A stretch of 45,482 nucleotides of DNA from Anaerolineae bacterium (GTDB taxonomy: Bacteria; Chloroflexota; Anaerolineae; Fen-1058), in NCBI GenBank assembly GCA_041497495.1, contig JBGQGR010000001.1, positions 1 to 45,482 of the forward strand, written 5' to 3'. Position numbers and translations under genes: made by a program. Below the pieces are notes generated by a model that was not told the DNA's origin, did no database searches, and saw nothing but the letters and a program-made list of their open reading frames with translations. Positions 2,476-35,929 of this stretch are shown here, piece by piece. Numbering within the stretch: the stretch's first letter is position 1; each line of letters starts with the position of its first letter.

Positions 2476-3450
2476 ATGAAACTTGGCCGAATTCTCCGCG
2501 TCCTCATCAGCCTGATCATTCTGGCGATCGTCATTGCCAGCGTCGGCGCCGATCGATTGTTCGATGCGCTGCGCTCGATCAATCTCGGCTGGTTCGCGAT
2601 CGCGCTGTTGTTTCATATGATCGGCCTGATCGTCCGCACGTATCGCTGGTCGATCTTGATCAAAGCCTTAGGCACCCCGGTGTCTTTTGGTCGATTGTTG
2701 TACTTGTACTTAGCGGGCACATTCTTCAACACGTTTTTGCCGACCAACATCGGCGGCGATGTGGTGAAGATCATCGAACTCTCGTCGGATCGAGGCGGGG
2801 CGCAGGCGTTCAGCAGCGTGTTCGCCGATCGGTTGACGGGCATTCTGGGTTCGTCGTTGATCGCACTCGTTGTCGCCATCCTCGATCCGGCGGATGTGCC
2901 GTCGTATGTCGTGTTGACTGTGATTTTGATTTCAGCCGGAATTTTGATCGCTTCGTTCTTGTTGACCCAACGCCGTTTCTTCGAATGGATCGTTGCGCAC
3001 TTAAAATTCTGGCCGAAAGTCCCGGGCGTAAAGAAGATTCAGAAAGTTGCCGAAGCGGTAACTTCATATTCAATTGGCGCAATTGTGAGGGCGATGCTGG
3101 TCTCACTGCCTTTCACGCTAACATTGATCGCCACACAGTATGCCCTGGCGCTCGGTCTGGGCATCGATGCGCCGCTGCGCTACTTTGCGTTATTCGTACC
3201 GATCATTGCACTGGCTCAGCTAATACCCATTTCATTCAACGGCCTCGGCGTGCGCGAAGGAACCTATCAAGTTTTATTCGGCGCAGTTGGTGTCGATCAA
3301 GCTCAAGCGGTAGCCATATCGTTCATGTATTACATCGTGCGCGTCGTCGGCGGATTGTTCGGCGGGCTGCTATATCTGATCGGGAATTTGAAAACGAACA
3401 GCGACGAAAGACGAACGACGAACGAAGATGTGTCAATTGATCATGAGTAG
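2476..3450 (+). CDS. Flippase-like / LPG_synthase_TM (UPF0104) family polytopic membrane protein
   Basis: Multi-TM ORF with the family-typical RTYRWSILIKALG and FFNTFLPTNIGGDVVK motifs. The ORF track starts at TTG 2458, and I prefer the in-frame ATG at 2476 (MKLGRILRV...). The start is uncertain. Confidence 0.7.
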   Translation: MKLGRILRVLISLIILAIVIASVGADRLFDALRSINLGWFAIALLFHMIGLIVRTYRWSILIKALGTPVSFGRLLYLYLAGTFFNTFLPTNIGGDVVKIIELSSDRGGAQAFSSVFADRLTGILGSSLIALVVAILDPADVPSYVVLTVILISAGILIASFLLTQRRFFEWIVAHLKFWPKVPGVKKIQKVAEAVTSYSIGAIVRAMLVSLPFTLTLIATQYALALGLGIDAPLRYFALFVPIIALAQLIPISFNGLGVREGTYQVLFGAVGVDQAQAVAISFMYYIVRVVGGLFGGLLYLIGNLKTNSDERRTTNEDVSIDHE

Positions 3451-3530
3451 TTGGTCATTGGCCGTTCATCCTTGGTCACTCAGCATGTGTCATTGAGCCT
3501 TGTTCATTGTTAATTGATCATTGTTCATTT
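3430..3530. repeat. Tandem heptanucleotide array (about 14 units; TTGGTCA / TTGTTCA / TTGATCA variants)
   Basis: Read directly: GTGTCAA TTGATCA TGAGTAG TTGGTCA TTGGCCG TTCATCC TTGGTCA CTCAGCA TGTGTCA TTGAGCC TTGTTCA TTGTTAA TTGATCA TTGTTCA. It begins inside the last codons of the upstream gene and ends at a TATAAT box. Confidence 0.8.
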
Positions 3531-3535
3531 ATAAT
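3530..3535 (+). promoter_or_regulatory. Candidate -10 box (TATAAT) at the 3' end of the heptamer array
   Basis: Perfect TATAAT 26 nt upstream of ATG 3562. The same array-plus-TATAAT arrangement recurs at 27903..27908. I found no convincing -35. Confidence 0.3.
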
Positions 3536-3561: not shown

Positions 3562-5229
3562 ATGGCATTGAACCACAAAGCATTGATCATCGGTCTTGAC
3601 GGCGCAACGTGGACATTATTACGCCCGTGGATCGATCAAGGTCATTTGCCTAACCTCGCGCGTTTGGTTAACGAAGGCGCGTCTGGCCCATTGACGACCA
3701 CGATCCCGCCGGTGTCCGCCTCGGCCTGGGTGTCGTTTGCCACGGGCTGCAATCCGGGCAAGCATGGCGCGTTCGATTTTGTGTTTCCACAGCCGGGCGG
3801 TTACGATATCGGCGTGATCAATGTGAAGGTGCGCGGCGTGCCGCCGTTCTGGAAATCGATCGAAGAGGCGGGCGGGCAAGTGGGCTTGATGAGTGTGCCG
3901 ATCACGTATCCGCCGCAGCCGATCAACGGTTTCACGGTCAACGGTTTTCTGGTACCGAATGAACAATCGGCTTATACGTACCCACCCGAACTTAAAGAGG
4001 AGTTGAAGCACAATGGTCAGCGTTGGCCGCTGCACGAGTTCGAAGGCAATCGATCGCGTCATCCGGGACGCTTCTTGCAGGACATGCTCGACTTCGACGT
4101 GACGCGCACCGACACGATCGTGTGGTTGATGCAGCACAAACCGTGGGATACCTTGGCCTGTGTATTGAAGACACCGGATACCGTGCAGCATGAACTGTGG
4201 CACATCATCGATCCGACGCATCCGCGTTACGCGGCGGAACTCAATCGACAGTTCGCGCCGGCGGTGCTGGACTACTTCAAGAAGATCGATGAGTGCGTCG
4301 GCCGCATCATCGCCGCCGCGCCGCCTGAGACCTTCGCCGCCATCATGTCCGATCACGGCGGCGGGCCGTTCCACAAATTCTTTCACGTCAACAACTGGCT
4401 CGCTCAGCAGGGTCTATTGAAGTTTAAGCGCGCGCCGTTGAGTATGATCAAGCGCGCATTGTTCAAACTCGGCTTCACGCCGATCACTTCATTGAAGATC
4501 GTCAACTTGCTGCGCTTAGGCCGTTTGCGCAGAAGAGTGAAGCGCGGTCGAGGCCGCGGCATGTTGAAGCGCTTCTTCTTATCATTCGGCGATGTCGACT
4601 GGTCGCGCACCAACGCTTTTGCGGTCGGCAACTTCGGACAGATCTATATCAACTTGAAGGGCCAGCGTTCGCAAGGCATCGTCGAGCCGGGCGTGGAGTA
4701 CGAGGCCGTTCGGGATCAGATCATCCGATCGGCGTTAGCGCTGCGCGATCCGGACGGCGGCGATCAAGTGATCGCGGCAGTGTACAAGAAGGAAGAGTTG
4801 TATCACGGCGATCGAGTTCCGGTCGCGCCCGATCTGATCCTGCACACCGATCGATCCAAGTACGTTTCATTCGGCCACGCCGACTTCGGATCGAACAAAT
4901 TATTGGAGGCGAGCGTCGGCCAAACCGGACATCACACGATGGACGGCATCGTCGTCCTGCACGGCGAAGGCGTGCGGCCGAAGACCGGAATCAAAGGCAA
5001 TATCATCGACATTGCGCCAACGGTGTTGTATGCATTGGGACTGCCGATTCCAGCGATCATGGATGGACAAGTCATGCAATCGGCTTTCAGCGCTGAGTAT
5101 TTAGCCGCTCATCCCATCGTCCGGGCCGCCGCCGATGAGTCCGCTTCAAGCGGATCGACCCATGCGTATTCCGAAGAAGATGAAGCGCAGGTCATGGATC
5201 GCTTGCGCGAGTTAGGCTATGTAGCGTAA
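3562..5229 (+). CDS. Alkaline-phosphatase superfamily protein, type I phosphodiesterase / nucleotide pyrophosphatase (NPP)-like
   Basis: ATG start. The N-terminus ALIIGLDGATW...LPNL..L...G....L.TTIPPVSASAW.SFATG..PGKHG is typical of the Phosphodiest/NPP family, and a later DHGG block also fits. No signal peptide is obvious. Confidence 0.75.
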   Translation: MALNHKALIIGLDGATWTLLRPWIDQGHLPNLARLVNEGASGPLTTTIPPVSASAWVSFATGCNPGKHGAFDFVFPQPGGYDIGVINVKVRGVPPFWKSIEEAGGQVGLMSVPITYPPQPINGFTVNGFLVPNEQSAYTYPPELKEELKHNGQRWPLHEFEGNRSRHPGRFLQDMLDFDVTRTDTIVWLMQHKPWDTLACVLKTPDTVQHELWHIIDPTHPRYAAELNRQFAPAVLDYFKKIDECVGRIIAAAPPETFAAIMSDHGGGPFHKFFHVNNWLAQQGLLKFKRAPLSMIKRALFKLGFTPITSLKIVNLLRLGRLRRRVKRGRGRGMLKRFFLSFGDVDWSRTNAFAVGNFGQIYINLKGQRSQGIVEPGVEYEAVRDQIIRSALALRDPDGGDQVIAAVYKKEELYHGDRVPVAPDLILHTDRSKYVSFGHADFGSNKLLEASVGQTGHHTMDGIVVLHGEGVRPKTGIKGNIIDIAPTVLYALGLPIPAIMDGQVMQSAFSAEYLAAHPIVRAAADESASSGSTHAYSEEDEAQVMDRLRELGYVA

Positions 5230-8688: not shown

Positions 8689-11600
8689 ATGATCCCATTC
8701 ATCCGCCGCCATTCGATCGTTTTTTCCGCGCTGATCATTTTCGGCCTCGCGCTCATCACGCGTACGGGCGCGATCAAACAATACGTCACGCCCGATGAGC
8801 CGATCTGGGTTCTGCGTTCGCTTAACTTCGCGACGGCGTTGAGCCGCGGCGATTGGGCGGGCACCGCGCAGATCGGTCATCCCGGCGTCACGACAATGTG
8901 GCTGGGATCGATCGGCATCGTGTTGAAACGTTTGGCCGATCCAGCCTCGTCCGCACAGGCGATCGATTGGTTGCAGCATGTCCCGGCGCTCGCGCCTGAC
9001 AATGCTGAAGCCTTCAAGCGACTCGGCGTGTTCCTCACTTTCGCTCGACTGTCGGTGATTTTGATTAACACTCTGGGCGTCGTCGGAATTTTCTTGCTCG
9101 CCCGAAAATTGTTGGGCCATTCGATTGCGCTGCTGGCCGCGCTGTTGATGGCGCTCGATCCGTTTATGGCCGGACTCGGCGGCTTGCTGCATGTCGATGG
9201 CTTGTTGACCACTTTTTCAACACTCTCAGTTTTGTCGTTGTTGATAGCAGTCAATCGACCCTCACCCCCAACCCCTCTCCCTAAAAAGGAGAGGGGAACA
9301 TGGTGGTTCGCATTATCCGGTTTCTTTGCCGCACTCGCCTTTCTCAGCAAGTCGCCCGCATTATTCTTAACCCCTTTTATTTTCTTAGTTGTCATCATTG
9401 CAATCTTGTTCAAAAAGATTCCGCTTCGATCAGCGCTCATCGGTCTTGTTACATTTGTCCTTTGTCATTTGTCATTTGTCATTGTGTTTTATCCCGCCAT
9501 GTGGCTCGATCCGATCGGCACGCTGCAGGGCATCATCGGCCTGGCTTCTTTCTACAGCGGCAATGCCGTGCGACCAACATTCTTCGATGGGCAGTTTGTC
9601 CTGAATCACGGTTTCGGCTTTTATCCGATAGCGTTGCTGTATCGCCTCTCACCGATCGAACTACTTGGCTTGATCATCGCTATCGTTTTCAGCGTGCGCG
9701 CAATCCGCCGGCGCCGAGCCAACTTCCAACCCCCAACTTCCAATTTCTATTCCATTGCCGCCTTTTTCGCTTACGCGATCCTGTTCATCATTTTCATTAC
9801 GCCCGTCGCCAAGAAATACGATCGATACATGCTGCCTGCACTGCCGATGTTAATCTTTATTGGCGCGTGGGCTTTCGATCAACTCAGCGCAGCTTTCACG
9901 CGGCACTTGCCACTTCTTACTCGTTACTCGTTACTCATGATCATCGCGCTGCAATCGATCATCACGCTGAACGCATGGCCTTATCTGCTCATGAGTTACA
10001 ACTTGGCACTTGGCGGCGCGACCGAAGCGCAGAAACATTTTGCGGTGGGCTGGGGCGAAGGCTTAGGAGCCGCCGCAAATTGGATCAATGCCCAGCCGGA
10101 TGGCTTGCAATCGACGGTGGCGACGGCGGCGATTCCATCCTTTGCGCCGATTTTCAGCGGCCGATCAGCCGGGATCGACGATCGGGCTATGGAGTTGGCC
10201 GATTACTATGTGCTCACTCTGAGCGAGCGGCAGTTGAACCCGAATGCCTTCGCCCAACTGCAGGCGCGCGCATCGATCGCGCAGACGCTGCATCTCGGCA
10301 GCCTGGAAGGCGCCTGGGTCTTCACCAACAATTTCGCGCAGCAGCAAGCGGAGTACTTGAATCAAGCGGATGTGCAGACTGATGCGGTTATCACCTTGAT
10401 CGATCTGCCCGTCTCGCGCGCCTACCACGGCGCAGCCAAGTTGGTGGTGCTGCCCGCTGATGTCACACCCCAACAGATCGAATTGATTCTGAACGATTTG
10501 AGCACGCATTATCGGCGGTTGTGGTTTACCTGGTCGACCGCGTCGATGCCCGTGGTCCAAAATCAAATTCAACACTGGCTGTCCCAGACGGCCGATCTGG
10601 TTTCGCAGCAAAGTGTCGGCGCGGTTCAGATTGCGGCTTATGATCTGCGGCCCGGAAAGATCGGACACCTTGATCCGTTCATTGCGCAATTTAATGGCAA
10701 CTTCTTGTTATTGGGTATCACGCCCTCTCCCGCCACGGTGCAGGCAGGCCAATCCAGTAATGTCGTCATGCGCTGGCAAGCCACTGCGTCCATCACAAGC
10801 CTATATACCGCCACGCTGGAATTAGTCGATGGGCAGGGTGAAGTATGGAGCGCCGGGGGGGACCCGATTAGCGATCAAGCTCAATTCTTAACGTCAGCGT
10901 GGCCGATCGGGCATATTGCCGAACAATTTTTTGGTCTCAGCCTGCCGCGTGAAATACCGCCGGGCCAGTATGCAGTAAGAGTCAGCATTGAACAATCGAA
11001 TCAAAGTGTCGGCTTATTCAGCCCGTCGGGCACATTCTCTGGCACTGCGCCGACACTGACTTCGCTGCAAGTCGATCGCAGCGCCAAGCCGCTGAATTCG
11101 ATCGGACGAACGATCGAGTATCCATTCAGCCACACCTGGCAAAACAAAATCACGTTAATCGGTTTTGATAACGGGCCGGGAGTCGTCGTCAACGGCGATC
11201 CATGGACGGTGAATGTGGTGTGGCGGGCAGTGACGGGCAATCTGCCCAAATTAAAAGTCTTGTGGCAGGTGCGCGATCCAAATAATGCGCTGGTTTATGA
11301 AAGCCGTCTGCCGTTCAGTCCATACGCAACGACCAATTGGCGCGCAGGTGAAATCATCGGCGCACGCTACACGCTGCGTTTTCCGGTCGAGCTGCTCAAT
11401 GCCGATTATCATGTCTCGCTGGGCGTGATCGATCCCGACGGCCAATTGTTAGACGGCGGCATGTTCACCCCATTTGATGTGCGGTTGTTGCACCGCGATC
11501 GATCGTTCGATCTGCCCCAAGCGCGCTATCCGATCTCGATCCCGTTCAGCGATCCGGCGATCACGTTGTTCGGCGCGGATTACACTCCGTCGACTGTTCA

Positions 11601-11951: not shown

Positions 11952-14900
11952 ATGACCGCCTCTACTCTTCGCTCTTCAGCGCTCATCACTCGTCACTCAT
12001 CACTTATCATTCGTCATTTATCATTGATATTGATCGGCCTGATCCTCGTCGCGCCGTTACTTCAATCAGCGCCGCTGCAAACCGATGACGGCGCGCTGCA
12101 TATCTATCGCACCGTCGCGCTCGATCGAGCGATCCATGACGGCTTGATCTATCCGCGCTGGTTTCCCGATCTGACTTTTGGATACGGCTTTCCCTTCTTT
12201 AATTATCGCGAACCGCTGGGCTACTATCTGATCGAACTGCTGCATCTTGTTGGTTTGACCCTTCCATTGAGCCTGAATCTTGTTTTGGCCGGAAGCGTCA
12301 TCCTGAGCGGCTTGGCGATGATGTGGTGGGCCAGCGACATCTTCGATCAACGCGCGGGCTTTGTTGCGGGTGTCCTGTACATGGCCTCGCCCTATACCTT
12401 GATCGGCCCGATCGAGCGCGGGAATATGCCGGAAGTGATCGCGCTGGCCTTGATCCCATTGGCATTGTGGGCTTTCCGCCGATTGATCGCCATCGGCGGA
12501 AGAAAATATTTTGTTGCGTCAGTCGTAGTCTATTCGGCCTTATTGCTCACGCATAACATTTCGAGCTTGATTTTTACGCCGATGCTTATTGCGTACTGCG
12601 TGTTGCGTATTGCTAACCCATCATTACCCATTACGCAGTACGCCGTACGTAATGCTTTGTTCGCAATAATCATATCGCTCGCGCTGACATCGTTCTTCTG
12701 GCTGCCCGCGCTGGCCGAGGGCAACTATGTGCAGTTGTATCTCACTCATTCGAACCGCAACAACGATTATCATTTCAACTTTCTGTCGCCGGGCGAACTT
12801 TTCAGCGGGCCCGGTCCATCCGATCCCAATCTCTTAAATCCGCCTTTGCGTTTCACGCTCGGCTGGCCGCAGATCGCCGCCGCGATCTTGGGACTGATCG
12901 CTTACCGTCGCAAGCCAACACGCCATCAACACGCACACCTCATCGCCGCCAGCGTTACCGCACTGATCTTCATCTGCATGACGCTCCCGATCTCACTCCC
13001 CCTTTGGGACAACTTACCGTTGATTCGATTCATCCAATTTCCGTGGCGCTTCGTCGGACGGGCTATGCTGCCGATCGCACTGCTCGGCGGCGCAGCCAGC
13101 TACACCCTTGCAGCACGCCTGTCTCGCATGCTTGCCAACACGCTGTCGTTCGTTCTCGTCATCGCCGTTCTCGTCTTCGCCACTCCGTTACTCTATCCGC
13201 GTGTCAGTTCGATCAAAGACACGCTCAACATCACTGACGTGTTTGCTTACGAACACGCGACCGGCAACATCGGCATCGATCCGGTCGGCGCGTATTTGCC
13301 GATCAGCGTTCAACAGCGGCCGGACGGATCACCGCTTGAAGAAGATTATGCAAGCGGTCGATCGATCCGGCGTTTCGATCGATCGGCTCTACCAAATGGA
13401 GCAGTGATCAGCAGCGAAATCTATCGGCCCAACTCTGCCTCGATCGATCTCTCTAGCCCAATCGATTTCCGCGCAACTTATTTGACGTTCGATTTTCCGG
13501 GCTGGCAAGTCTCGATCGATCAACAGCCAATCTCGATCGTTCCGTCTGATCCGATCGGCTTGATCACCTTCGACGTTCCGGCGGGCCAACATCACATTGA
13601 AGTATCATTCGGCTCAACCCCGATTCGATCGATAGCAGAGATAGTATCGTTATTTGGATTAATCGCACTGGTAATCAGTCTCTTTTACATGCAATCAAGC
13701 AGCAACCACGAAAGCACAACGGCACACAGTAATCTTGGTATCTTCGCTTCTTGGTGGTTCATCCTAATCCCAATCACTTTTCTGCTCGTCAAATTGCTGC
13801 TCATCGATACACAGCTCACGCCATTTCGAACAACTCGTCTGGCTAATGATCGGATAACAAGCGTGTCCCATCCGCTGCAGATCGACTTCGGCGGTCAAAT
13901 GCGCTTGTTAGGCTACGACATCTCGTCAACCACTGCGCCATCCGGCGAAAGCGTCCGCGTCGATCTGTATTGGCGCGCGCTCACGCCGATGACCACCGAG
14001 TATCAAACCACCGTCGGCGTGATTGATGCTCGCGGCGAAATCTGGAGCCCCAAATCGCTCGATCGACCGCGTGACTTTCAAGACTCTCCGCCGACGACGC
14101 AGTGGTCAACAGCTTCATACGCGATCGATAGTTTTGAATTGCCGATCAGGCCTGGTACACCGCCTGAGACTTATTCAATTTATGCAGAAGTGTTTAATCG
14201 CAGCACGCTGATTCCGCTTTCGGCACAAGCGACTGTACCGCATCCGAGCCAGCGACCGGCTGATGCGGTTATCGGCCCGATCTCGGTCAGCCATTCTTCG
14301 CAAGTTTTTTCCAGCGACCAACTCGGTATCTATAACCTGAAACTCGATCAAGCGCTTACGCCTGATCTTAAGCTCTTGGGCGTGAATCGCGATCGGGATG
14401 ATGTCCTGTCCGGCGACACGGTGCTACTGACGCTGTTCTGGCAGGCCGCACAAAAACCGGCTCAAGATTACGCGCTCAAGATCGAATTGATTGATGCGCG
14501 GAATCAACCCGTCGCCACTCGCGGTTTCCCGATCGGGAGTGTGTACTACCCCACCTCCAACTGGAACAATGGCGAACAGATTATCGATCTCGATCGCGTG
14601 CGCGTACCAGCCAGCACATCGACTGGCTCTTACCACTGGCGCATGACCGTCTTGAATCAATTCACAGCGGATTTGGGCGAAGTGCGCGTCACTGCGCCCG
14701 ATCGATCTTTTCAAATTCCAACGATCCCGCATCGTCTCGATCAAACATTTGACGACAAGATTACATTGTTGGGCTACCAGCTTGAAGGACAACCGCAACG
14801 AGGACACGACCTGCAGGTCACTCTATTCTGGCGCGCCGACGCCGACATGGCTTCATCGTATAAAGTCTTCGTGCATTTACTCGACACGAATGGTCAACCA

Positions 14901-18100: not shown

Positions 18101-18356
18101 CACCGCCGCCGCGCGTGTTGACCAGGCCGGGTCCGGTCCACAAGGGCAGCGCGGCCAGCAGCGACAATAACAGAAGCGTCAGGCCGATCCAGTTGATCGA
18201 TCTGACGCTTCGAGATTGTGGAGAGGCTATCACGGATTCATTCGCCAAAGTGACGCGTGACACCTGCACCGCACTGTCCGAAGGACGTTGCAGTGCAGGT
18301 GTCACGGCAGACGTGTTGCGACGTGCGTGAGCGATCTGCGATACGCGATAAGCCAT
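15129..18356 (-). CDS. GT-C fold membrane protein, YfhO / PTPS-related-like, with three C-terminal repeat modules (paralog of 11952..15125)
   Basis: 1075-aa ORF with an ATG start. Motifs FPARWMPDAAYGLGYPFFNYYASLPYYF and YWPGWLASIDGQNVEA...VPRGEHRVEFSL, with a C-terminal module ANYKVFVHVFDP...AYPTSRWLRGE...PSGSYRIAIGLY. A 13-bp inverted repeat lies in codons 18-34, so an alternative TTG start at 18248 is possible. Confidence 0.8.
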   Translation of the reverse strand: MAYRVSQIAHARRNTSAVTPALQRPSDSAVQVSRVTLANESVIASPQSRSVRSINWIGLTLLLLSLLAALPLWTGPGLVNTRGGGDSPFLFFRLQQLVTNLHDGVFPARWMPDAAYGLGYPFFNYYASLPYYFGAIFNFLGFDLLISIKIVQTLGFAFAAFAMFRWADWHFSTRSISWLIAIAYLYAPFHFVNVYVRGDSLSEFYAFIFYPLSLLAIERALAAPRLFYGLALAYGGLILTHNASALIFSPFALIYALIQILQSKLRPKKQSLLSLMAGLGLAFALSAWFWLPALGESNLAQLDVQTTGYFNYAEHFRSVDLVQGSIGFDYSIATAPGSNTPFAMGLIQTLGTALGLIALAVTWRRDQNKSLRVFALIGLGLSTFMITPLSRVLWDHLPLLPFTQFPWRFLSIQALFTSMAIGYIGILFTAGRAENGGKLHKNLNVLRTLSGLIGLALVASILIPLRPDYLPIRADEITPDRLQLYEAFTSNIGTTIRAEYLPRTVIPRLYTSSVLIDPALPPQAIVANGVAASTQLSRGAIDQVWQVAVTSNSATLDFPLLYWPGWLASIDGQNVEAMPAPDLGYIQIDVPRGEHRVEFSLGHTTIRVIGELVSIVALIVLAILLWMRIRAYPHGLRLFALRLIYGLVVTIIIIVLGSLVQASNVVAANGSDLTMDFDSKPWLHHNPGGVDFGSAAKLIGYELSEISDQSINLSLNWEVATTQAVSATIALVTPSTHLFNGPSPINQESVMIQSGTSTVRLTSPYRLATGLYYVRVQVGSIDQYLKPIWIKSDRTFAGAHLFGNLTPSIGLAAVQVQHLDSDQLDVLLSWSVSGSTAANYGISLRLHDSTGERSATLDTQPGYGFQPTSAWQIGALNEAYTLSLPSDLPRTGVYALDVILYHVASKEEVGRATIDGIRLDSTYAWTSIEPPSRDFTEPSVPNRIDAIFGNQIELLGYDLARDGQTLIFKPTWKAVTNVDANYKVFVHVFDPTTEKIVAQSDAMPRNNAYPTSRWLRGEVVNDTIALPLLDLPSGSYRIAIGLYLPSNDRLPIGGGRNIDAVNRRVILDDVINVSQ
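18257..18305. repeat. 13-bp perfect inverted repeat GTGACACCTGCAC-(23 nt)-GTGCAGGTGTCAC
   Basis: Read directly. A related imperfect hairpin, CACCTGCACTG-(9 nt)-CAGTGCGGTG, lies at 27771..27800. Confidence 0.7.
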
Positions 18357-18366
18357 CGGCCATTTG

Positions 18367-18948
18367 CTATTTGGCGCGCGATCGCTGCACGAACATGCCC
18401 GCCATGAACCCGGCGACCAGCAAAATAATCACGCCCAAACCACCCAGCGCAATTCGACCTAACGTCGACGGGCCACCACTACCGCCAGCCGCTGAGCTCG
18501 ACGGCGCGCCGGTGTTGCCGCTGGCGGGCTCGCTCGGCGCGGACGAATCACCGCCAATCTTCTGCGCGCCGTACTTCGCATCGAACTGCGCGCCGCTCGC
18601 CAAGCTGATGGCCCATTGGCCTTCTGTCGTAGATTCATAACCGATCGGCGCTTTCGCCCGAACCGTATATGAACCCGCCGCTAACTTTCCAAAACAGTAC
18701 GGCTCACTCACGCCATCAGTCGAGTACGAGCCCATCACCCCGCTGTCATCCGATAACGTAAAGCCCACACCCGCTAATGATTTTTCATCGGCATCACGTG
18801 CCGCGTTGCCGTTCGTATCATCAAAGGCCTGTACACACACTTGGCCGTTCGTTTGTTGCAGCTGCGGCGCCGCTGAGGCGACTCCGGCCAGACTGCTCAA
18901 CAGCAACAGCATCATGATCGCTGCGCCGATCCGTCGGATAAGCTGCAT
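18367..18948 (-). CDS. Secreted, membrane-anchored SdrD-B-like (Cna-B-type) domain protein
   Basis: Signal peptide MQLIRRIGAAIMMLLLLSSLAGVASA. Domain CVQAFDDTNGNAARDADEKSLAGVGFTL...TDGVSEPYCF..L..GSYTV. Gly/Ser-rich spacer, C-terminal TM helix and basic tail (QRSRAK). Confidence 0.75.
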   Translation of the reverse strand: MQLIRRIGAAIMMLLLLSSLAGVASAAPQLQQTNGQVCVQAFDDTNGNAARDADEKSLAGVGFTLSDDSGVMGSYSTDGVSEPYCFGKLAAGSYTVRAKAPIGYESTTEGQWAISLASGAQFDAKYGAQKIGGDSSAPSEPASGNTGAPSSSAAGGSGGPSTLGRIALGGLGVIILLVAGFMAGMFVQRSRAK

Positions 18949-22088: not shown

Positions 22089-24353
22089 TTAAGCGATCGC
22101 CCGGCGGCGCTGCAGGATGATCCAGCCGCCGATGCCGAGTACTGCGCCGATGATCAATAACCCGATCGTTCCGGTGGCGTCTGCTGGGGCAGCCGGCTTC
22201 GCTTCGCTTGCGCGGCTGCCGAAATTTACATTGACGGTCGCGCCGCTGTCCAGCGTCACACTCCAGCGTCGATCGGATGTAGCGATCATGCCGGCTGGTG
22301 TTTGAATCGCGACGGAATAGTTGCCCGGCGCGAGTTTATTGAAGCAATGCGGCTCGCTGATGCCGTCGGTCGAATAAGATGTGAGCTGTTTACCCTGCGC
22401 ATCATATAACATGAACATCGCTCCGCTGAGCAGCACTTCGCTCGATGTGTAGACACCGTTCGCGTCCACGTCGTTGAAAGCGCGCACACACAACTGCGTC
22501 GCCTCCGGCGCGGCCGCCACTTGTTCCGGTGTAGGCGTAGCCGCGATCGTCGGCGCGGGCGTGGCCTCGGGCGTCGCCGTTGCGATCGACGCGGAGATGA
22601 CCAACTCGCGGCCGATGACGATAAAGGAATCTTTGGTCAAACCGTTCAATTGCAGAATCTGATCCATCGGCACATTATACTGCAAAGACAACCCGAACAG
22701 AGAATCGCCGGGTTTGACCGTGTGGACGACTGAACCATCAGGATACGGCGTGGCCGTGGGGCCGGGCGCGTAGTTGATGATGGCCGGCGGCGCGGGATTA
22801 TTGTTCGACACGGGCGGCGCGCCGATCGGCTGATCCGGAACTTGAATCGCCACCAGTTCGGCATCGTCCACATACACATCGTTGTGCTTCAAGCCTTTTT
22901 CCGGCATGCTGTGCGTAAACACCGTCACGTGATCCGATTGGGCAGTCGCGCGCACTTCGTAATAGCCGAAGATATCGTAGCTGTCATGTTCGGCCGACCA
23001 GACGATGTTCGGACTCCACGGATCATCGCCGCCGGTCGGATCAATACCGACCCGCATGTGCATGCTGGTCTGCCCGGATGAGTTGAAAGAGGCAGGATCG
23101 AGATCGCTGCCGTCTTGGTTGGACGACCACGCGTGCATATACACGCCGAAGCGCAGCACACTGCCCGGCGGAACATTGACCGTTTGGAATACACCGGCTT
23201 CATGCACGCTGTAGAAGGTGAAATATTTTTGCGAGTTCTTGCCGGAATGAATCCGCGCTGGGCCTGAGATCGTGCCCTTCGTGTCGCGGAATTCAGGATT
23301 GTGCCAGGCAATGCAGCCTTCGGGCGCATCCGAATAACAATTGTTGGGATGATTGGAATAGAACTTTGGATCCGTGCCGTGTTTGGTATTGGGCTCCAAC
23401 CACCACGCCGTCCAGCCAATGGGCACCTGCACCGTGTTCCAGATGAAATTAATGTGCCGACCTTTCTCGTCTTTCGCATCCAAATCCAGGCCGTCACATG
23501 AAACATGCCGCCACGGCACATCCGCAATGGTGCTGCATGGAATATAGAGCTTGCCTTCAAAGCCGCCATCGGTCAGTAAATTCGTGCCCACTTGCACACT
23601 GGCCGGCGTGGGCGTCAGAACAATTGGCACAGGCGTGGCCGTAGGATAGGATGCTTGAGCCGTTGCGGCCAGATCGCCGCTGAGCACCGTCAACGCAGCA
23701 TCATCCCAATACACTTCATTGTTGCGCCGTGAATCGAACGGGTTCGCATACGTGAAAACCGTGACGGTGGTATTTTGCGATCGGGCAAAGACGGAGAACT
23801 GATACCACGAATCGAGTATATTGAGTGGCTGCGTCCAGACAACATTCGGGCTTTTCGGATTTGTGCCGCCGGTCGGATCGATGCCAATCTTCATCTGCAT
23901 ATTGGTGCCGCCGACCGAGATATTGATCGGATCGTTGCTTTGCGATGACCAGCCTTGACCGTAAATCGAAAACTGTAGATCGACATTCAACGGAACGGTC
24001 ACTTGTTGATAGATGCCCGCTTCGTACGCGCCGAAGAAGTGGAACATGCGCTGCGCATTGCCGCCGCCGTGAATGCGATGATCACAGCCTTTGGTGCAAG
24101 TATTACTCGGACTGTAATTCGGCTGCAAGTAGGCCCATTCCGGCGCATTGGCCGGATGCGGCGTCCACCACGCCGACCAACTAGTCGCCACCTGCGCATC
24201 CGCATTGATCTGTGTGAAGCCCGCCTCAAAATTTGGATTCTTTAAGAGGTTCGAGCCCGCGGCAGAACTCGGCGAGGCTTGAACGTTCAACGGAAGTAAC
24301 GCCACCGCGAACGAGAATATTAAGCTAAGAATCAAGAAACGTTTCAGTTGCAT
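22089..24353 (-). CDS. Secreted surface protein: two CBM-like jelly-roll modules + LysM + SdrD-B-like domain + C-terminal anchor
   Basis: Signal peptide. Two modules opening NLLKNPNFEAG and NLLTDGGFEG, each ending ...GIDPTGG...VTVFT...DDA.L. LysM (HTVKPGDSLFGLSLQYNVPMDQILQLNGL). A CVRAFNDVDANG... domain. Tail IGLLIIGAVLGIGGWIILQRRRAIA. Confidence 0.8.
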   Translation of the reverse strand: MQLKRFLILSLIFSFAVALLPLNVQASPSSAAGSNLLKNPNFEAGFTQINADAQVATSWSAWWTPHPANAPEWAYLQPNYSPSNTCTKGCDHRIHGGGNAQRMFHFFGAYEAGIYQQVTVPLNVDLQFSIYGQGWSSQSNDPINISVGGTNMQMKIGIDPTGGTNPKSPNVVWTQPLNILDSWYQFSVFARSQNTTVTVFTYANPFDSRRNNEVYWDDAALTVLSGDLAATAQASYPTATPVPIVLTPTPASVQVGTNLLTDGGFEGKLYIPCSTIADVPWRHVSCDGLDLDAKDEKGRHINFIWNTVQVPIGWTAWWLEPNTKHGTDPKFYSNHPNNCYSDAPEGCIAWHNPEFRDTKGTISGPARIHSGKNSQKYFTFYSVHEAGVFQTVNVPPGSVLRFGVYMHAWSSNQDGSDLDPASFNSSGQTSMHMRVGIDPTGGDDPWSPNIVWSAEHDSYDIFGYYEVRATAQSDHVTVFTHSMPEKGLKHNDVYVDDAELVAIQVPDQPIGAPPVSNNNPAPPAIINYAPGPTATPYPDGSVVHTVKPGDSLFGLSLQYNVPMDQILQLNGLTKDSFIVIGRELVISASIATATPEATPAPTIAATPTPEQVAAAPEATQLCVRAFNDVDANGVYTSSEVLLSGAMFMLYDAQGKQLTSYSTDGISEPHCFNKLAPGNYSVAIQTPAGMIATSDRRWSVTLDSGATVNVNFGSRASEAKPAAPADATGTIGLLIIGAVLGIGGWIILQRRRAIA

Positions 24354-24447: not shown

Positions 24448-26439
24448 CTATGGCCCCACCGCATTCGGGCCGCCCAACAAAATCGCTCGATCGATCACGG
24501 CCTGCGCGGATTCGATCACTTTCACTCGCTGGCCGGTCGATCGATTGTATACGCCCATTTCGATCAGCAGCTGAACCCGATCGGCTTGAGCTGGCAACTC
24601 GATCGTTCGCTGATCGATGACAACATCCCCTACCCGCCACAAGCTCGCCGGATAAAAGCCAGCGCCGCTATCACCATCGACCGAAACAACCAACTGATTA
24701 TTCAACAACAAATGAACAAAGAAAGTTTCATCACTGCTTTGCGATTGATCTGCCATCCACAACGTTCTCAACCGCCAATGCCCCTCGTCAAGCACTTCGA
24801 TCGAATGGCCGAGCAGCCGCAGGCCATTCGCAAACTGCGCCTCAGTGAGACTCGACGTTGATTGCTTCGGATCGATCTGCACGCGCAAGTAACCCACATG
24901 CGGCTGCGGATCGAGATCGCCTTGTGCCATCGGCCCCGCCGAGACTTGCAGCGTGAGCGGCCCCGGCAGAGTGGCGAATGATTTTGAAAAATCTTCGTAC
25001 GGCCAGACGAATAATATTGCCGACCGCGCCGGATCGATCGATGCTTGGCCGCCATCGGGAATCGTTTGATAGTCGCCGCTCAGCAAAAACGAAACGCTCG
25101 CCCAATCACGAATGAATCGATCGGCGATGAAGACTTGCCTGTTGGACAAGAGGTCATCTTGCGCGACTCTGGCTAATTCTGTGCCTGCCACTTCAAACGC
25201 ATTCGCCGTTTCAGGATCGATCGCATATTGACTGTAATCGCGCACGGTCAACACGCCTGCCATGATGATCACCGCACTCATCATACCGAGGCCGATCAGT
25301 CTCGATCGCGTTTCGATCCATCTGCCGACCAGATCGAGTCCAATCGCCGGAATGATCATCACTACCGGCAAGATGCCAACGACGCGCAAGAAGTGCGGCG
25401 AGTCTTCGGCTAAGATCGTGGGCAGCAGCATCACCGCGACCCATAAGAGCGTGAAGAGTGATGATAGCTTATTTACCGCTGAGGGCGCGGAGAAAATTTT
25501 CTTAGAACTCAGCGAACTCCGCGTGCTTTGCGGTAGGATGGCTACAACTAAGCAAATCAATCCGACTACAAAAAAGATCGCCGAGATCGGATCGAAGACC
25601 GGCCGATAAGGCACGTTGTGGCGCGGGATGCGATCGCCCTGCCAGAAGAACATGCCCAACGCTTTGAGCGTGCTGCTCACTGCCGTGCCGACAAAATCGC
25701 CGTGATTGATGCCGCTGCTGAAGATCGATATTTCGCCGGGGCGGCCCATGACCACGTCCCACTCATTTGCCGCCGTGATCGCCAACGGCGCAATCACCAA
25801 GGCCGCCGCCGCGATAAAGAGCAGCACGTTCGGCCATAAGCGGCGGGAACGTTGAGCCGCGATCAAAACCATCGAGAAAGCAAGCAAAGCCGCGGGCGTA
25901 AATCGAGCAGCCAGATAGGTGTAAAATGAAGCGCCGTACACCAGGCCGGCGATAATCCAAGCGCGCCGCCGGTTCGATCGATACGCGCGCATGCCCAGCG
26001 CGATGAACAGTGCAATGAACAGCGGCAGACTGACGGCGCGCAAACCGATGTGGCTGAGATGAATCGGCCAGAGCGTCACCGTCATGATCGCCGCGCTCAG
26101 AAAGCCGACGCGTCGATTGAAAAGTTCGCGCGCCAGCCAATAAGTGGCCGGGATTGTTAAAGTGCCAATCAGCGCCGCAGGCAAGCGCAGCGCGATCACG
26201 CTGCGACCAAACAAGCTGACGCTCAACGAAACCAAATAAATGAAAAACGGTTCGCGCCCGTTGTTGGCCGCAAAGTACCACGGATGATCGCCGCCCAGCA
26301 CGCGCAGCGCGTCCAAGCCGTTGAAGGCTTCATCGTGATATAAGCCGGGCGGCCACGCGCCGAGCTGATACAAACGTAAAGCCCCAGCCAAGAGCATCAA
26401 CCCAATGACCGGGGCCCATTCCTTAAAGATGCGTTGCAT
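24448..26439 (-). CDS. GT39 / ArnT-PMT_2-like GT-C membrane glycosyltransferase with one C-terminal repeat module
   Basis: The ORF track extends to 26679, overlapping the divergent gene. The in-frame ATG at 26439 gives MQRIFKEWAPVIGLMLLAG...LYHDEAFNGLDA, the first-loop DE motif typical of ArnT/PMT-like GT-C enzymes. Many TM helices. The C-terminal module is ETFFVHLL...YPASLWRVGDVV...MGVYN..TGQRV. Confidence 0.8.
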   Translation of the reverse strand: MQRIFKEWAPVIGLMLLAGALRLYQLGAWPPGLYHDEAFNGLDALRVLGGDHPWYFAANNGREPFFIYLVSLSVSLFGRSVIALRLPAALIGTLTIPATYWLARELFNRRVGFLSAAIMTVTLWPIHLSHIGLRAVSLPLFIALFIALGMRAYRSNRRRAWIIAGLVYGASFYTYLAARFTPAALLAFSMVLIAAQRSRRLWPNVLLFIAAAALVIAPLAITAANEWDVVMGRPGEISIFSSGINHGDFVGTAVSSTLKALGMFFWQGDRIPRHNVPYRPVFDPISAIFFVVGLICLVVAILPQSTRSSLSSKKIFSAPSAVNKLSSLFTLLWVAVMLLPTILAEDSPHFLRVVGILPVVMIIPAIGLDLVGRWIETRSRLIGLGMMSAVIIMAGVLTVRDYSQYAIDPETANAFEVAGTELARVAQDDLLSNRQVFIADRFIRDWASVSFLLSGDYQTIPDGGQASIDPARSAILFVWPYEDFSKSFATLPGPLTLQVSAGPMAQGDLDPQPHVGYLRVQIDPKQSTSSLTEAQFANGLRLLGHSIEVLDEGHWRLRTLWMADQSQSSDETFFVHLLLNNQLVVSVDGDSGAGFYPASLWRVGDVVIDQRTIELPAQADRVQLLIEMGVYNRSTGQRVKVIESAQAVIDRAILLGGPNAVGP

Positions 26440-26535
26440 ATTTCGATTTTCGATTAATGTAGGGGCGAGCTGATCACTCCATTTGCCAAAGCGGGAAAAG
26501 TATAACACAATAGGCGCGCGCGGCAAAGCCGCGCT

Positions 26536-26626: not shown

Positions 26627-27724
26627 ATGAAAGTTGCCATCCTCTCCAAAGCCTTAATCGTCAGCGCGTATCGCAGCAAACTCGATCAACTGGCCGCGCT
26701 GCCGGATATTGAAGTGATCGCCATCGTGCCGCCGGAGTGGCGCGATGAGCGCGGCGTCATGCGCTTGGAACATTCGCTCGACAACGCGTATGAATTGATC
26801 GTCACGCCGATCGCGTTCAACGGCAGTTTTCATCTGCATTTTTATCCGCAGATCGATCGGCTGCTCCGGCGAATTCGGCCCGACATCCTGCACATCGACG
26901 AAGAGCCTTATAACCTTGCGACTTTCCTCGCGCTGCGATCAGCCCGGCGGGTTCGGGCGCGCACGTTATTCTTTAGCTGGCAGAACCTCAATCGATCTTA
27001 TCCGTTTCCGTTCAATCGCATCGAACGCTACGTGCTGAACCACATCGATGCCTGCATCGCAGGCAATCATGACGCGCAGACGGTGTGGCGCGCCAAAGGC
27101 TATCGCGGCCCGATCGAGATTATTCCGCAGTTCGGCGTCGATCCGGAGATGTTCGCACCTGCCTCGCGCAGCAGCGCTGGAACATTCGTCATCGGCTATG
27201 TGGGCCGCTTCGTTCAAGAAAAAGGGATCGATATTTTATTGCAGGCTCTTTCAACGTTGACGGGCAACTGGCGTGCCGATCTATTAGGCAGCGGCCCGGA
27301 TCAAACCCGGTTGATCGATCTGGCCGAACGCCTGCACATCGACGATCGTGTTCGATGCCTGCCCTGGATTCCATCCACCCACCTGCCGGCTTACTATCAT
27401 TCACTTGATTGCTTAGTCTTGCCCTCGCGCACCAAATCAAACTGGAAGGAACAATTCGGTCGAGCGTTAGTGGAAGCGATGGCCTGCGGTGTGCCGGTGA
27501 TCGGATCGAATTGCGGCGAGATTCCGAATGTCATCGGCCACGCAGGGCTGATCTTTCCCGAAGGGAATGTCGATGCGTTGCGCCAGCAGTTGATCGACTT
27601 GCAAGAGAATCCGTCGATGCGTGCTGATCTTTCGAAGCGCGGTCGGCAGCGAGCGCTGGATCAATTTACGCAGGCAGAGATTGCGCGTCGAACGTACGGC
27701 GTGTATCAAAGGATGAGAGGATGA
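26627..27724 (+). CDS. GT4-family (Glycos_transf_1) glycosyltransferase
   Basis: I prefer ATG 26627 (MKVAILSK...) to the track start at 26582. The C-terminal signature is PSR...EQFGRALVEAMACGVPVIGSNCGEIPNVI. Confidence 0.85.
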   Translation: MKVAILSKALIVSAYRSKLDQLAALPDIEVIAIVPPEWRDERGVMRLEHSLDNAYELIVTPIAFNGSFHLHFYPQIDRLLRRIRPDILHIDEEPYNLATFLALRSARRVRARTLFFSWQNLNRSYPFPFNRIERYVLNHIDACIAGNHDAQTVWRAKGYRGPIEIIPQFGVDPEMFAPASRSSAGTFVIGYVGRFVQEKGIDILLQALSTLTGNWRADLLGSGPDQTRLIDLAERLHIDDRVRCLPWIPSTHLPAYYHSLDCLVLPSRTKSNWKEQFGRALVEAMACGVPVIGSNCGEIPNVIGHAGLIFPEGNVDALRQQLIDLQENPSMRADLSKRGRQRALDQFTQAEIARRTYGVYQRMRG

Positions 27725-27805
27725 AGCAGGCTGCAGGCTGCAAGTTGCATAACACATGATGCGTTACTCACACCTGCACTGTAACGCACGCAGTGCGGTG
27801 CAAGT

Positions 27806-27903
27806 GTTACTCGTTACTCATCACATTTCATTCACCACTTATCACTTGTCACTCATCATTTGTCATTGTTCATTGTTCATTGCTCATTGCTGATTGTCCA
27901 ATT
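27806..27903. repeat. Tandem heptanucleotide array (about 14 units: GTTACTC x2 ... GTCACTC ATCATTT GTCATTG TTCATTG x2 CTCATTG CTGATTG)
   Basis: 7-nt periodicity read directly. Like the array at 3430..3530, it ends in ...ATTATAATCG. Confidence 0.8.
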
Positions 27904-27908
27904 ATAAT
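27903..27908 (+). promoter_or_regulatory. Candidate -10 box (TATAAT) at the 3' end of the heptamer array, 6 nt before ATG 27915
   Basis: Perfect TATAAT. The short distance to the ATG would imply a leaderless or near-leaderless mRNA if this box is used. I saw no -35. Confidence 0.3.
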
Positions 27909-27914
27909 CGCCGC

Positions 27915-29054
27915 ATGATTGATCAACCGCCGCGCATTGCGATCAACGCACATCTGCTTCACGGCCACGGCGGCTATCGCAGCGCCGGGATCCACACCTA
28001 TACGGAACAAGTGCTGCGCCATCTACCGCAAGCCGATCCCGATCTGCGTTATACGGTTTTCACCACACACCCGCCCAACGATCTCGATCCGGCGATTGAA
28101 GTACAGGCTTCACGCTGGAACACGGAAAGACCGGCACTACGAATTCTGTGGGAGCAGATCGTTCAGCCCAGAGCAGCCCGTCGAGTCAAAGCGGCTGTGC
28201 TGCACGACACGGCTTTCGTGGGGCCGATCGTTCGACCTTGCCCGATCGTGCTGACAATTTACGATCTGAGTTTTGCGCTGTATCCTCAATTTTTTCGCGG
28301 CGTGAAGCAAACATACTTGCGGCTCGGCACGCGCTATTCGGCAAAGCGCGCCCAGCGCATCATCGCCATTTCAGACAACACACGGCGCGACATCGCGCGG
28401 CTTTACAATGTGCCGATCGATCGGATCGATCTCGCTTATCCGGGTGTCGATGAAACGATCGGACGCCAATCGGCCGTTGAGGTCGAACGCTTTCGTAGTG
28501 AAAAGAGTTTGCCGAATAAGTTTCTGTTGTTTCTGGGAACTTTAGAGCCGCGGAAGAATCTGCCCACGTTGATCCGCGCCTTCGCGCACATGAAGATCGA
28601 GTGCCCCGATGCCAAATTAGTTTTGGCCGGCGGCCTTGGTTGGCTGACGGCTGAAATTTTTGACACAGTAAAATTAGCGGGCGTCGAAGATCGAGTCATC
28701 TTGCCGGGGTTCGTCGCCTCGGCAGAAAAAACGTTGTGGTATTCCGCCGCGACGGCGTTTGTGTATCCATCGATCTACGAAGGCTTTGGCCTGCCGCCGC
28801 TTGAAGCCATGGCTTGCGGCACTCCGATCATTGTTTCAAATGCAGCTTCGTTGCCGGAAGTCGTGGGGGACGCAGGCATCTCGATCGATCCGCAAGACGT
28901 GAATAGTTGGGCCGCGGCGATGACACGCGTGTGGGGTGATGAAGCCTATCGGACCGAGTTGGCCAATCGGGGTTTAGCTCAAGCCCAAAAATTTAGATGG
29001 ATCGAAACGGCGCGCGCCACGACATCAAGTTATCGTCGAGCGCTGGAAAAGTAA
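27915..29054 (+). CDS. GT4-family (Glycos_transf_1) glycosyltransferase
   Basis: I prefer ATG 27915 ([15 protein letters not shown]...) to TTG 27894, which lies inside the repeat array. Signature [37 protein letters not shown]. Confidence 0.85.
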
Positions 29055-29367: not shown

Positions 29368-29402
29368 ATTGCTCATGGCTGATGGTCAATGGCTAATTGC
29401 TT
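29368..29402. repeat. Short heptanucleotide array (ATTGCTC ATGGCTG ATGGTCA ATGGCTA ATTGCTT)
   Basis: Five 7-nt units read directly, ending at ATG 29403. Confidence 0.65.
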
Positions 29403-30830
29403 ATGAAACCTAAGTATCCGCGCTGGCTCATGTGGAGTGTGGTGATCGGCGACAGTGTGCTGATCAACGTGGCGTTTCTGCTGGCTTATACGCTGCGCTA
29501 TGACGTGCAGCTACTTCGCCCGGTAGAACCGATCTTTGATAATCCGCCGACGGTGTACATTCCATTTGCTATTCTGCTAACCGGTTTGTTGTTGATCACA
29601 TTCAAGATCGACGGCGTGTATCAATCGCACCGACTGGGTTTGTGGCTGGAGCAGATGTATGCGATTGTGCGCGGGACGACGTTGGGCATTCTGCTGATGG
29701 TCGGCATCACGTTCTTTTATCAGCCCACTTTTTATTCCCGATTGATCTTCGTGTACGACAGCGTGCTGATCGTCGTGCTGCTGGGCGTCGGTCGATTGGT
29801 CTGGGGCTTCATCCTCGCTCAGCTGCGGCGGCGCGGCATCGGCGTGGTGCGCGTGCTGATCGTTGGCGCAGACGAAGTAGGCCGCACGGTGATTCGCACC
29901 GTGATGGCTCAGCCGGAGTTAGGTTATCGTATTGTGGGCTTAATCAGCGATCAATTCGATACGAATACGTTGAACATCGGGCCGATTCCCATGTTGGGCG
30001 GCTTGGAAAAAATACCGCAAGCGATCAGCGATCAACATATCGACGAAGTGGTGATTGCACTGCCGTGGACTGATCAACAGCGCGTGCTGGAAGTGTTTCA
30101 AACGTGTGATCGCTTGGGTGTGCGCGCCCGCACGGTGCCGGATATTTTTCAATTGAGTTTGAACCGCGTCGATGTGGAAGATTTGGGTGGCGTGCCGCTG
30201 TTGGGCTTGAAGTCGGCCTCGTTTCGCGGCACGAATCTGCTGGTGAAACGCCTGATAGATTTGATCGTCGGCGGCCTCATCTCATTGATCGCGCTGCCGT
30301 TCGTGCTAATCCTGGCGATCGCGATTCGGATCAATTCACCCGGTTCGATCATCTTCAAACAAAAGCGCGTGGGCATGCGCAGCAAAGAATTCACTATTTA
30401 TAAATTTCGCACCATGCGCGCGGGTGCGGAAGAAGAACAGGAACGCCTCTTGGTCTACAATGAATTTACCGGCCCGCTGTTCAAGATGAAAGACGATCCG
30501 CGCATCACGCGCGTCGGACGCTTCCTGCGCAAGACCAGTTTGGACGAGCTGCCACAGTTGTTCAACGTCTTGAAAGGCGACATGAGTCTGGTCGGGCCGC
30601 GCCCCCACATCGCTTCGGAAGTTGCGCAATATCAGGACTGGCAGAAGCAAGTGCTCGAAGCGCCGCCGGGCATGGCCGGACTTTCGCAAGTCTCCGGCCG
30701 CAGTCAACTCAGTTTCGATGAGCAGTGTCTGCTCGACATCTACTACATCGAGAATTGGTCGCCCGCGTTGGATATCAAGATTTTGCTGCGGACGATTCCG
30801 AAGGTGTTATCGGGTGAAGGGGCGTATTGA
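29403..30830 (+). CDS. Polyprenyl-phosphate sugar-phosphate transferase (WbaP / bacterial sugar transferase family), initiating enzyme
   Basis: N-terminal TM helices, a central nucleotide-binding-like domain ([12 protein letters not shown]) and a C-terminal Bac_transf signature KRLIDL......L.....[21 protein letters not shown]...F.IYKFRTM...[38 protein letters not shown]. An alternative TTG start lies at 29397. Confidence 0.9.
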
Positions 30831-35856: not shown

Positions 35857-35929
35857 CAGGCCAGGCAGGACTTGAACCCGCAACCCCGCGTTTTGGAGAC
35901 GCGTGCGCTACCAATTGCGCCACTGGCCT
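35857..35929 (-). tRNA. tRNA-Trp (anticodon CCA), 73 nt, 3'-CCA not encoded
   Basis: Minus-strand read: AGGCCAG TG GCGC AATTGGTA GCGC A CGCGT CTCCAAA ACGCG GGGTT GCGGG TTCAAGT CCTGC CTGGCCT G. It folds as a cloverleaf (7/4/5/5-bp stems, one G-U pair) with the anticodon loop CT-CCA-AA. Confidence 0.93.

Follow-up and report, generated by a model that had tools for sequence, protein, structure and literature searches.

The DNA described here, 45,482 nucleotides of an Anaerolineae bacterium (contig JBGQGR010000001.1, positions 1 to 45,482), carries tandem arrays of seven-base units, or heptamers, in and between the genes of a glycan and envelope locus. This whole stretch is called the window below. 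Positions are those of the window, and features lie on the plus strand unless marked (-). Related loci carry numbers starting with L.

Gene families were assigned by Pfam annotation. Gene g2 encodes an LPG_synthase_TM protein and g3 (ATG at 3562) a phosphodiesterase. The next two, g4 and g5, encode PMT_2 GT-C proteins that are paralogs of each other, and g6 (ATG at 11952) and g7 encode PTPS_related/YfhO-like membrane proteins. There are also four LysM/SdrD_B proteins, including that of the LysM gene g11, and another PMT_2 protein (g12). GT4 glycosyltransferases are encoded by g13 and g14, and a Bac_transf priming transferase by g16 (ATG at 29403). The ribosomal genes and rpoB come after these glycan and envelope genes. 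Base composition is 55% G+C.

Judged by its relatives, the host is a Thermoflexales/Anaerolineae-like member of the Chloroflexota, from soil or sediment. A genome scan with the g5 protein returned eight syntenic loci at 55-61% identity. All eight come from metagenome-assembled genomes (MAGs) titled Thermoflexales, Anaerolineae or Chloroflexia, which are the nearest genomes to the host and place it in the Chloroflexota. They also rule out a cyanobacterial origin of the DNA, in line with an earlier note on this sequence, which had found the core genes unlike those of cyanobacteria; the gene order, in which rpsL and not rpoC follows rpoB, agrees. One JGI metagenome contig (L001) matches the window at 99.99% identity and has equal array lengths.

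To measure periodicity, segments of 35 nt were matched against themselves at every lag between 2 and 15. Across the whole window, lag 7 alone yields any segment with at least 28 of 35 matches. First-order Markov simulations of the window and related loci gave 0 period-7 arrays, and the other periods from 5 to 12 gave almost none. The window itself holds 7-11 period-7 arrays. Given this enrichment for period 7 only, chance and low-complexity artefacts are ruled out.

The earlier note had listed strict 7-nt arrays at four sites. Over a background of 0.25, their lag-7 self-match reaches 0.53 (3430-3530), 0.62 (11961-12036), 0.69 (27806-27903) and 0.68 (29368-29402). These four stand, the last of them with the help of its orthologs. 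So does the remark that the ribosomal half lacks arrays; the period-7 scan finds none beyond about 29.4 kb. The likening to short tandemly repeated repetitive (STRR) sequences was also apt, in that these are tandem heptamers with several unit families. The list was incomplete, however. It overlooked at least five arrays inside open reading frames (ORFs), at 3395-3428, 9437-9496, 9719-9747, 9894-9943 and 12583-12649, and intergenic arrays at 18328-18375 and 27721-27749.

Two of the four listed arrays end in a -10 box. Array A (3437-3529) lies upstream of g3 and consists of some 14 TTGNTCA units in a single register. It overlaps the g2 stop codon (TAG, 3448-3450). The distal units are degenerate, and the last four read TTGTTCA TTGTTAA TTGATCA TTGTTCA. 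Stepping back by 7 from the TATAAT -10 box of g3 (3530-3535), which is conserved in orthologs, TTG keeps its phase over about 14 units, down to 3437. A promoter scan and the register both point to a -35-like hexamer, TTGTTA (3507-3512), at 17 nt before the -10 box. The hexamer consists of bases one to six of the third unit counted back from the box. The g3 mRNA would then have a predicted leader of about 20 nt.

Array B (27806-27902) has about 13 units and precedes g14 (27915-29054). Its TTG phase is likewise held, over about 13 units, back from a TATAAT box at 27903-27908, after which come CGCCGC and the ATG at 27915. Along the array the units drift, from CTCGTTA/CTCATCA to TTTGTCA, TTGTTCA, TTGCTCA, TTGCTGA and TTGTCCA. 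By register, the -35-like hexamer is TTGCTC (27880-27885), again 17 nt before the -10 box. The ORF tool listed the TTG at 27894 as the start of g14, but the gene begins with the ATG at 27915.

The observation that two arrays end almost identically in TATAAT is exact: the junctions TTGTTCATTTATAATC (at 3521) and TTGTCCAATTATAATC (at 27894) each occur once in the window. Counted from the first T of TATAAT, both promoters of the window have TTG at -23, -16 and -9, and so does each ortholog that has an array. By sigma-70 criteria, both promoters have an exact TATAAT (at 3530 and 27903) and a -35-like TTGNNN with a 17-nt spacer. The fixed register of the units and the conservation in orthologs, both found by sequence comparison, support the suggestion that the boxes are promoter elements.

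Upstream of g3, the window, L005 and L007 share a 25-nt block, CATTGATCATTGTTCATTTATAATC, without a single difference, although the adjoining spacer has diverged. The block has decayed in L002 and is absent in L009.

Upstream of g14, 8 of 9 orthologs retain the arrangement TATAAT-N6-ATG, at protein identities as low as 54%. A TTGNTCA array is present in four of these promoters, with about 13 units in the window, about 3 in L059, about 14 in L060 and 4 in L061. The other four (L063, L064, L065 and L066) have no array and carry TGGTATAAT instead, an extended -10 element. An extended -10 requires no -35. The array and TGGTATAAT are never found together in a g14 ortholog promoter.

The first T of the g14 TATAAT lies 12 nt before the ATG, and there is no Shine-Dalgarno (SD) sequence. 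This is the published pattern of a leaderless gene: in bacteria, the first T of the -10 box of such genes is modally 12 nt before the start codon, and in medium-GC groups such as the Chloroflexi the signal takes the form TAtaaT (PMC3160421).

Metagenomes were scanned with a pattern of two units plus TATAAT, leaving the unit at -23 unforced. This gave 49 contigs, 11 of them with 50-61% G+C. In 8 of these 11 high-GC cases the unit at -23 is TTGNNNA, and in 7 of the 11 a long ORF begins 6-9 nt after the box. The families found after the box in these seven contigs are HAD hydrolase, M19 dipeptidase (Peptidase_M19), MoaC, GatC and one unnamed; an SBP gene is also among those preceded by an array plus TATAAT. 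These genes elsewhere are housekeeping genes. An envelope-specific regulon is therefore ruled out, and specificity for envelope genes is not supported.

The scan also returned low-GC contigs (L012, L030, L043 and L056, 34-43% G+C) with TCATTGN arrays ending in TATAAT. A cyanobacterial source for these is unsupported: they have no HIP1 sites, and the proteins of L012 are Bacteroidetes-like. The array-promoter word may thus occur outside the Chloroflexota too.

The array before g16 is of a different kind. Five ATTGNNN/ATGGNNN units (29368-29402) fill the spacer between g15 and g16 and abut the g16 ATG at 29403, with neither an SD sequence nor a -10 box. The array scores 19 of 28, where the maximum in Markov simulations is 20, which means that taken alone it is within chance. 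It is counted as real because orthologous loci have ATTGNNN arrays at the same ATG. Such arrays abut the g16 start in L059, L060, L064 and L065, and are absent in L061 and L063.

Other arrays are translated. The array at 11961-12036 starts 9 nt after the g6 ATG (11952) and is in frame, covering an N-terminal tail and the first membrane helix. All eight g6 orthologs have the upstream ATG, a tail rich in Ser, Thr and Arg, and a stop-free array. The array peptide is SLIIDHW/SLIIVNC, and it leads into a conserved VGLILAAPLLQ. A TTGATCA unit would give a TGA every 21 nt; the in-frame g6 copies are always TGG or TGT, and the out-of-frame copies are often TGA. The avoidance of TGA is thus confined to the reading frame. 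A position upstream of a later start is ruled out, given that a downstream ATG exists in 3 of 8 orthologs only and the upstream one in all eight. By this comparison, translation of the array yields the N-terminal membrane anchor of g6. The claim that every array lies upstream of a start codon accordingly fails, here and in the relatives, most of whose arrays are inside ORFs.

In g5, a TTTGTCA/TTGNTCA array (9437-9496) is in frame and encodes the membrane helix before a YPAMW motif. It is present in 9 of 9 orthologs, with 22-32 of 47 matches at lag 7, and its length is identical in all nine. The equivalent helix of the paralog g4 has no periodicity (12-14 of 47). Within the array minor codons recur, as TTT GTC ATT GTN CAT TNG TCA TTG NTC ATT. 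Synonymous codon identity is 0.74 versus 0.54 for the whole gene, in the top 1% of segments along it, and codon typicality is in the bottom 3%.

Further arrays inside ORFs are (CGACGAA)n in the C-terminal tail of g2 (3395-3428), (CCAACTT)n in g5 (9719-9747, in frame) and (TTACTCG)n, also in g5 (9894-9943, in frame), which encodes LLTRYSLL. In g6 there is an adjacent inverted pair, (TTGCGTA)n followed by (TACGCAG)n (12583-12649), with an RNA hairpin score of z = -3.5. A conserved RNA hairpin from these inverted arrays is ruled out, since the orthologous g6 segments have z between +1.4 and -1.6. A segment with inverted arrays in L003 (6070-6150) folds with z = -5.7. An Rfam scan at the arrays found no RNA family; its sole match is the tRNA at 35857-35929.

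A repetitive peptide might of itself make ORFs periodic. This is ruled out by synonymous resampling for the same peptides, which gives much lower lag-7 values (z 2-9). Because the arrays had been picked for being periodic, the comparison of orthologs is the cleaner test.

The relatives are rich in such arrays. Eight of them, with about 128 kb in all, have 32 strong period-7 arrays between them. Seventeen loci picked by protein homology, including further loci found via g14, hold 71, many at orthologous positions. Relatives with 55-89% protein identity have 7-nt arrays at matching positions. Of the arrays in the g2-g7 region, counted over the window and its relatives, about 80% are inside ORFs, mostly in large genes for membrane proteins. 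These recur at equivalent positions in orthologs, often with different unit sequences. Spacers can differ between close relatives: L059 has a 130-nt array between g12 and g13 where the window has none, despite 89% identity of the GT4 protein. On this comparison, intergenic arrays turn over fast.

Two families of proteins in the relatives have arrays of their own at fixed codons. Orthologous unannotated proteins of about 858 amino acids have inverted pairs of heptamer arrays at the same codon position (around 125-145), at L002 1658-1692, L003 6079-6144 and L007 942-1033; an example is (GGGATCA)n...(TGATCCC)n, and the units differ between species. A second phosphodiesterase paralog has an in-frame array at the same codon (around 241) in L007 (3902-3939) and L009 (2879-2917). 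Its units are unrelated, ATTCCGC in one species and CAATCAG in the other.

Two intergenic arrays of the window follow stop codons. One (18328-18375, -) lies directly 3' of the g8 stop codon. The g7 ORF as called starts at 18356, which is probably an over-extension (window 18228-18366, -), with the true start at the ATG at 18230. This start rests on homology with L059, whose product has 1030 amino acids, and it makes the array intergenic. The other, a (GCAGGCT)n array (27721-27749), is at the stop codon of g13.

Both arrays are followed by a copy of a two-copy dispersed hairpin element, CACCTGCACTGnAACG...CAGTGCGGTGCA, at 18265-18301 (-) and 27771-27802. The element is also found in L059 (9927-9938), and has 0 matches in shuffled sequence. 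Each copy comes after a stop codon plus heptamer array and before the next gene, and the element may represent a terminator-like or a repetitive extragenic palindromic (REP)-like repeat.

There are practical consequences for annotation. Stop-free arrays mislead gene callers by pushing N-termini through the promoter. In L060 (10001-11272), a protein of 423 amino acids was called instead of one of about 380, and the window ORF starts at 27894 and 18356 are further cases. Separately, the overlap of g12 and g13 in the ORF list is an artefact; the real starts are at 26439 and 26627.

Two further promoter-like boxes were seen. TGTTATACT, an extended -10-like box, lies 5' of the PMT_2 gene g12 (around 26505-26513, -), and is conserved in L059 (8590-8600). 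Inside the LysM gene g11 there is a TATAAT-GTGCCG-ATG (around 22662-22679, -), also present in L059 and L060, that opens an in-frame C-terminal product of 192 amino acids and is conserved in these three species. This box may be an internal leaderless start, or mere coding conservation.

A profile of the unit was made from 22 arrays of the TTGNTCA class, 120 units in all, sliced per position. Information content is 1.42 bits at T1, 1.58 at T2, 0.80 at G3, 0.08 at N4, 1.10 at T5, 0.98 at C6 and 1.67 at A7. Intergenic arrays, with 63 units, and coding arrays, with 45, give the same profile. Twenty of the 22 arrays are in the sense orientation; these represent some nine independent sites, seven of them sense. 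In ORFs this orientation is expected, because the antisense unit TGANCAA gives stop codons.

We think it probable that these are heptamer repeats of the kind called STRR or long simple sequence repeats (LSSR), and that the TTGNTCA arrays supply the -35 element and the spacer of sigma-70-type promoters, with g14 leaderless. Heptanucleotide simple sequence repeats (SSRs) would pervade this Thermoflexales/Anaerolineae-like lineage of the Chloroflexota. Arrays would arise and change length by slipped-strand events, and be kept where they are tolerated or useful. At a promoter, we infer that the unit at -23 serves as the -35 element, and that the next two units make the 17-nt spacer. TTG is present in every unit, and gain or loss of units upstream would leave the geometry of the promoter intact. 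The g14 mRNA would start at the A of its ATG, as opposed to the short leader predicted for g3. The array before g16 would be an A/U-rich, SD-less spacer within an operon, and that of g6 is translated as a membrane anchor. The observations behind this reading are the periodicity, the register, the conservation in orthologs, the translation of the coding arrays and the complementarity of array and TGn extension.

Several points weigh against it. The -35-like hexamers are weak, with 4 of 6 matches for TTGTTA and 3 of 6 for TTGCTC. The metagenome scan imposed two units plus TATAAT, which means that its independent evidence is limited to the unit at -23 and the distance to the ATG, in contigs whose taxonomy is not established. 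A single event in evolution may account for the mutual exclusion of array and TGn. Near-identical contigs have no change in unit number, and ongoing slippage is inferred from differences between species only. Finally, slippage followed by neutral decay fails to predict two things: the free position 4 of the unit (0.08 bits, versus 0.8-1.7 elsewhere), and a g5 array of fixed length that keeps its minor codons in nine species.

The arrays could also be neutral by-products of slippage, tolerated in spacers, loops and membrane helices, with TATAAT as the sole functional part of the promoter, helped by read-through or by TGn. We regard this as unlikely, although not negligible. The -10 box is indeed kept without an array in L009 and in L063-L066, the 130-nt array of L059 is missing from the window at 89% protein identity, and the number of units varies widely. 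Neutrality sits less well with six conserved positions around a free one, intergenic and coding arrays alike, or with a 25-nt block (CATTGATCATTGTTCATTTATAATC) that is identical in three species. It likewise leaves the presence of the TGn extension where the array is absent, and the nine g5 orthologs with their synonymous identity and atypical codons, to be accounted for.

The g5 codons and the motif profile together suggest selection on a nucleotide word, or else templated homogenisation. A more specific proposal is that TTG-N-TCA is a selected seven-base word, read in tandem on the sense strand by a factor with a 7-nt footprint. We hold this to be a tentative idea and an unlikely one. Readers of the word may be a single-strand binder of the cold-shock or Y-box type, or region 4 of sigma sampling arrays of -35-like sites. 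If the idea is true, the word is under nucleotide-level selection in promoters, at SD-less starts and in the coding sequence of GT-C glycosyltransferases, and the coding arrays carry a regulatory signal and a membrane-helix peptide in one sequence.

In another reading, the arrays would be tandem binding sites for a candidate factor that reads 7 nt of single-stranded RNA or DNA per monomer, for example a cold-shock-domain (Y-box-type) protein. Such a factor would keep SD-less starts unstructured or modulate transcription, and the period would be its footprint. This we consider improbable. ATTGG is the Y-box core, and units with N = G contain it. The arrays of this class are nearly all sense, they abut start codons without an SD sequence, and coding and non-coding ones share a profile, as such a factor would have it. 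The orientation is however mostly forced by the coding and promoter roles, the independent sites are few, and many arrays have unrelated units (TTACGCA, GCAGGAT, GGGATCA). For CspB of Bacillus subtilis, whose heptamer consensus is GTCTTTG/T (PMC1904285), one monomer binds per heptamer (PMC4679880), which fits. The rotation NTCATTG agrees with that consensus at five of its six fixed positions, among them position 3 with its preferred C, but after allowing for rotations and strands this has a p of only about 0.06 by our estimate.

The earlier note had also raised slipped-strand variation of surface genes. In orthologous promoters the number of units is 0, 3, 4, 6-7, 13 or 14, a spread that one would expect of an SSR. 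Four pairs of near-identical contigs were compared, as that note had proposed for strains: the window and L001 (99.99% identity), L061 and L062 (100%), L023 and L051, and L005 and L042 (99.98%). In this small sample no change in unit number was found. The gain or loss of a unit keeps a TTG at -23, so the -35/-10 spacing is unaffected. Among the coding arrays, that of g5 at 9437-9496 is fixed in length, and others, such as the N-terminal one of g6, vary in length between orthologs. In the last pair of contigs an insertion of about 1.7 kb (L005 6190-7892) breaks the ortholog of g4 relative to L042; its cause may be a mobile element or a difference in assembly.

That the arrays are contingency loci, where slippage switches or grades the expression of surface-glycan genes as does the (ATCTTTC)n of hmwA (PMC8262952), thus seems very improbable: the setting in a glycan and envelope locus, the differences in unit number between species and the hmwA precedent for a promoter repeat that grades expression speak for it, but a one-unit change gives no on/off switch, all four contig pairs have equal array lengths, housekeeping genes have the same type of promoter, and the g5 coding array has a constant length in 9 of 9 orthologs, even if other coding arrays vary.

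To our knowledge, heptanucleotide repeats have been noted for decades, in cyanobacteria, Xanthomonas, Beggiatoaceae and Bacteroidetes, and there is no agreed function. The best known are the STRR sequences of the cyanobacteria Calothrix, Anabaena and Nostoc, short tandem heptamers that include the unit TTGGTCA. There too the 7-nt units are in tandem, there are several families per genome at many dispersed loci, and arrays can lie within functional genes; TTGGTCA is here one variant of TTGNTCA. Unlike those repeats, the present ones are in a member of the Chloroflexota and not in a heterocystous cyanobacterium, and two of the window arrays are in a fixed register with a -10 box. Cyanobacterial STRR are also predominantly intergenic, whereas most arrays of the g2-g7 region are inside ORFs.

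In many bacteria the most abundant class of LSSR is that of heptamers, for which an origin by polymerase slippage has been put forward (Mrazek 2007, as summarised in PMC4679880 and PMC4692102). Examples are GGGAATC of Xanthomonas and GGGGATT of Nostoc (PMC4692102). As in those repeats, going by these summaries, period 7 is specifically over-represented here, there are occasional inverted pairs, and related species vary widely in length and sequence at the same intergenic sites. LSSR are there defined as repeats of 5-11 nt units that are longer than expected by chance, and the window, with its excess over the simulations, has such repeats. The differences from GGGAATC and GGGGATT are that the units here are A/T-rich (TTGNTCA), that no G-quadruplex is possible, and that many arrays are translated. 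The lineages given for LSSR in these summaries do not include the Chloroflexota.

TAACTGA direct repeats are found in marine Beggiatoaceae, cyanobacteria and Bacteroidetes (MacGregor 2015, PMC4679880). These heptamers also lie directly 5' of SD-less starts, like the array before g16, with no functional coherence of the downstream genes and with occasional copies inside ORFs. The TAACTGA unit has stops in all frames and is therefore mostly intergenic, whereas translation passes in frame through TTGNTCA arrays that lie at conserved positions. Here the unit sequence is ATTGNNN/TTGNTCA instead, and no fusion to a -10 box has been described for TAACTGA.

In Haemophilus influenzae, the (ATCTTTC)n of hmwA lies between the P2 and P1 promoters, and the number of units grades expression (PMC8262952). 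Both there and here a heptanucleotide SSR is immediately 5' of a promoter of a surface-related gene. The hmwA unit number varies within strains, whereas no variation within a population was found among our four contig pairs. In addition, in the window the array itself would provide the -35 element and the spacer.

A full-text literature search for Chloroflexi together with heptanucleotide repeats found no paper. New here are the occurrence in this lineage, the joining of arrays in a fixed register to a -10 box, with exchange for TGn, and translated arrays that are conserved between orthologs. The lineage is therefore a comparative handle on these repeats: the repeat word is fused to -10 boxes and is evolutionarily exchangeable with the TG of an extended -10, it precedes leaderless genes, and within coding sequence its nucleotides themselves are conserved. 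A role in building promoters is directly testable, and a factor that reads seven bases is raised as a possibility.

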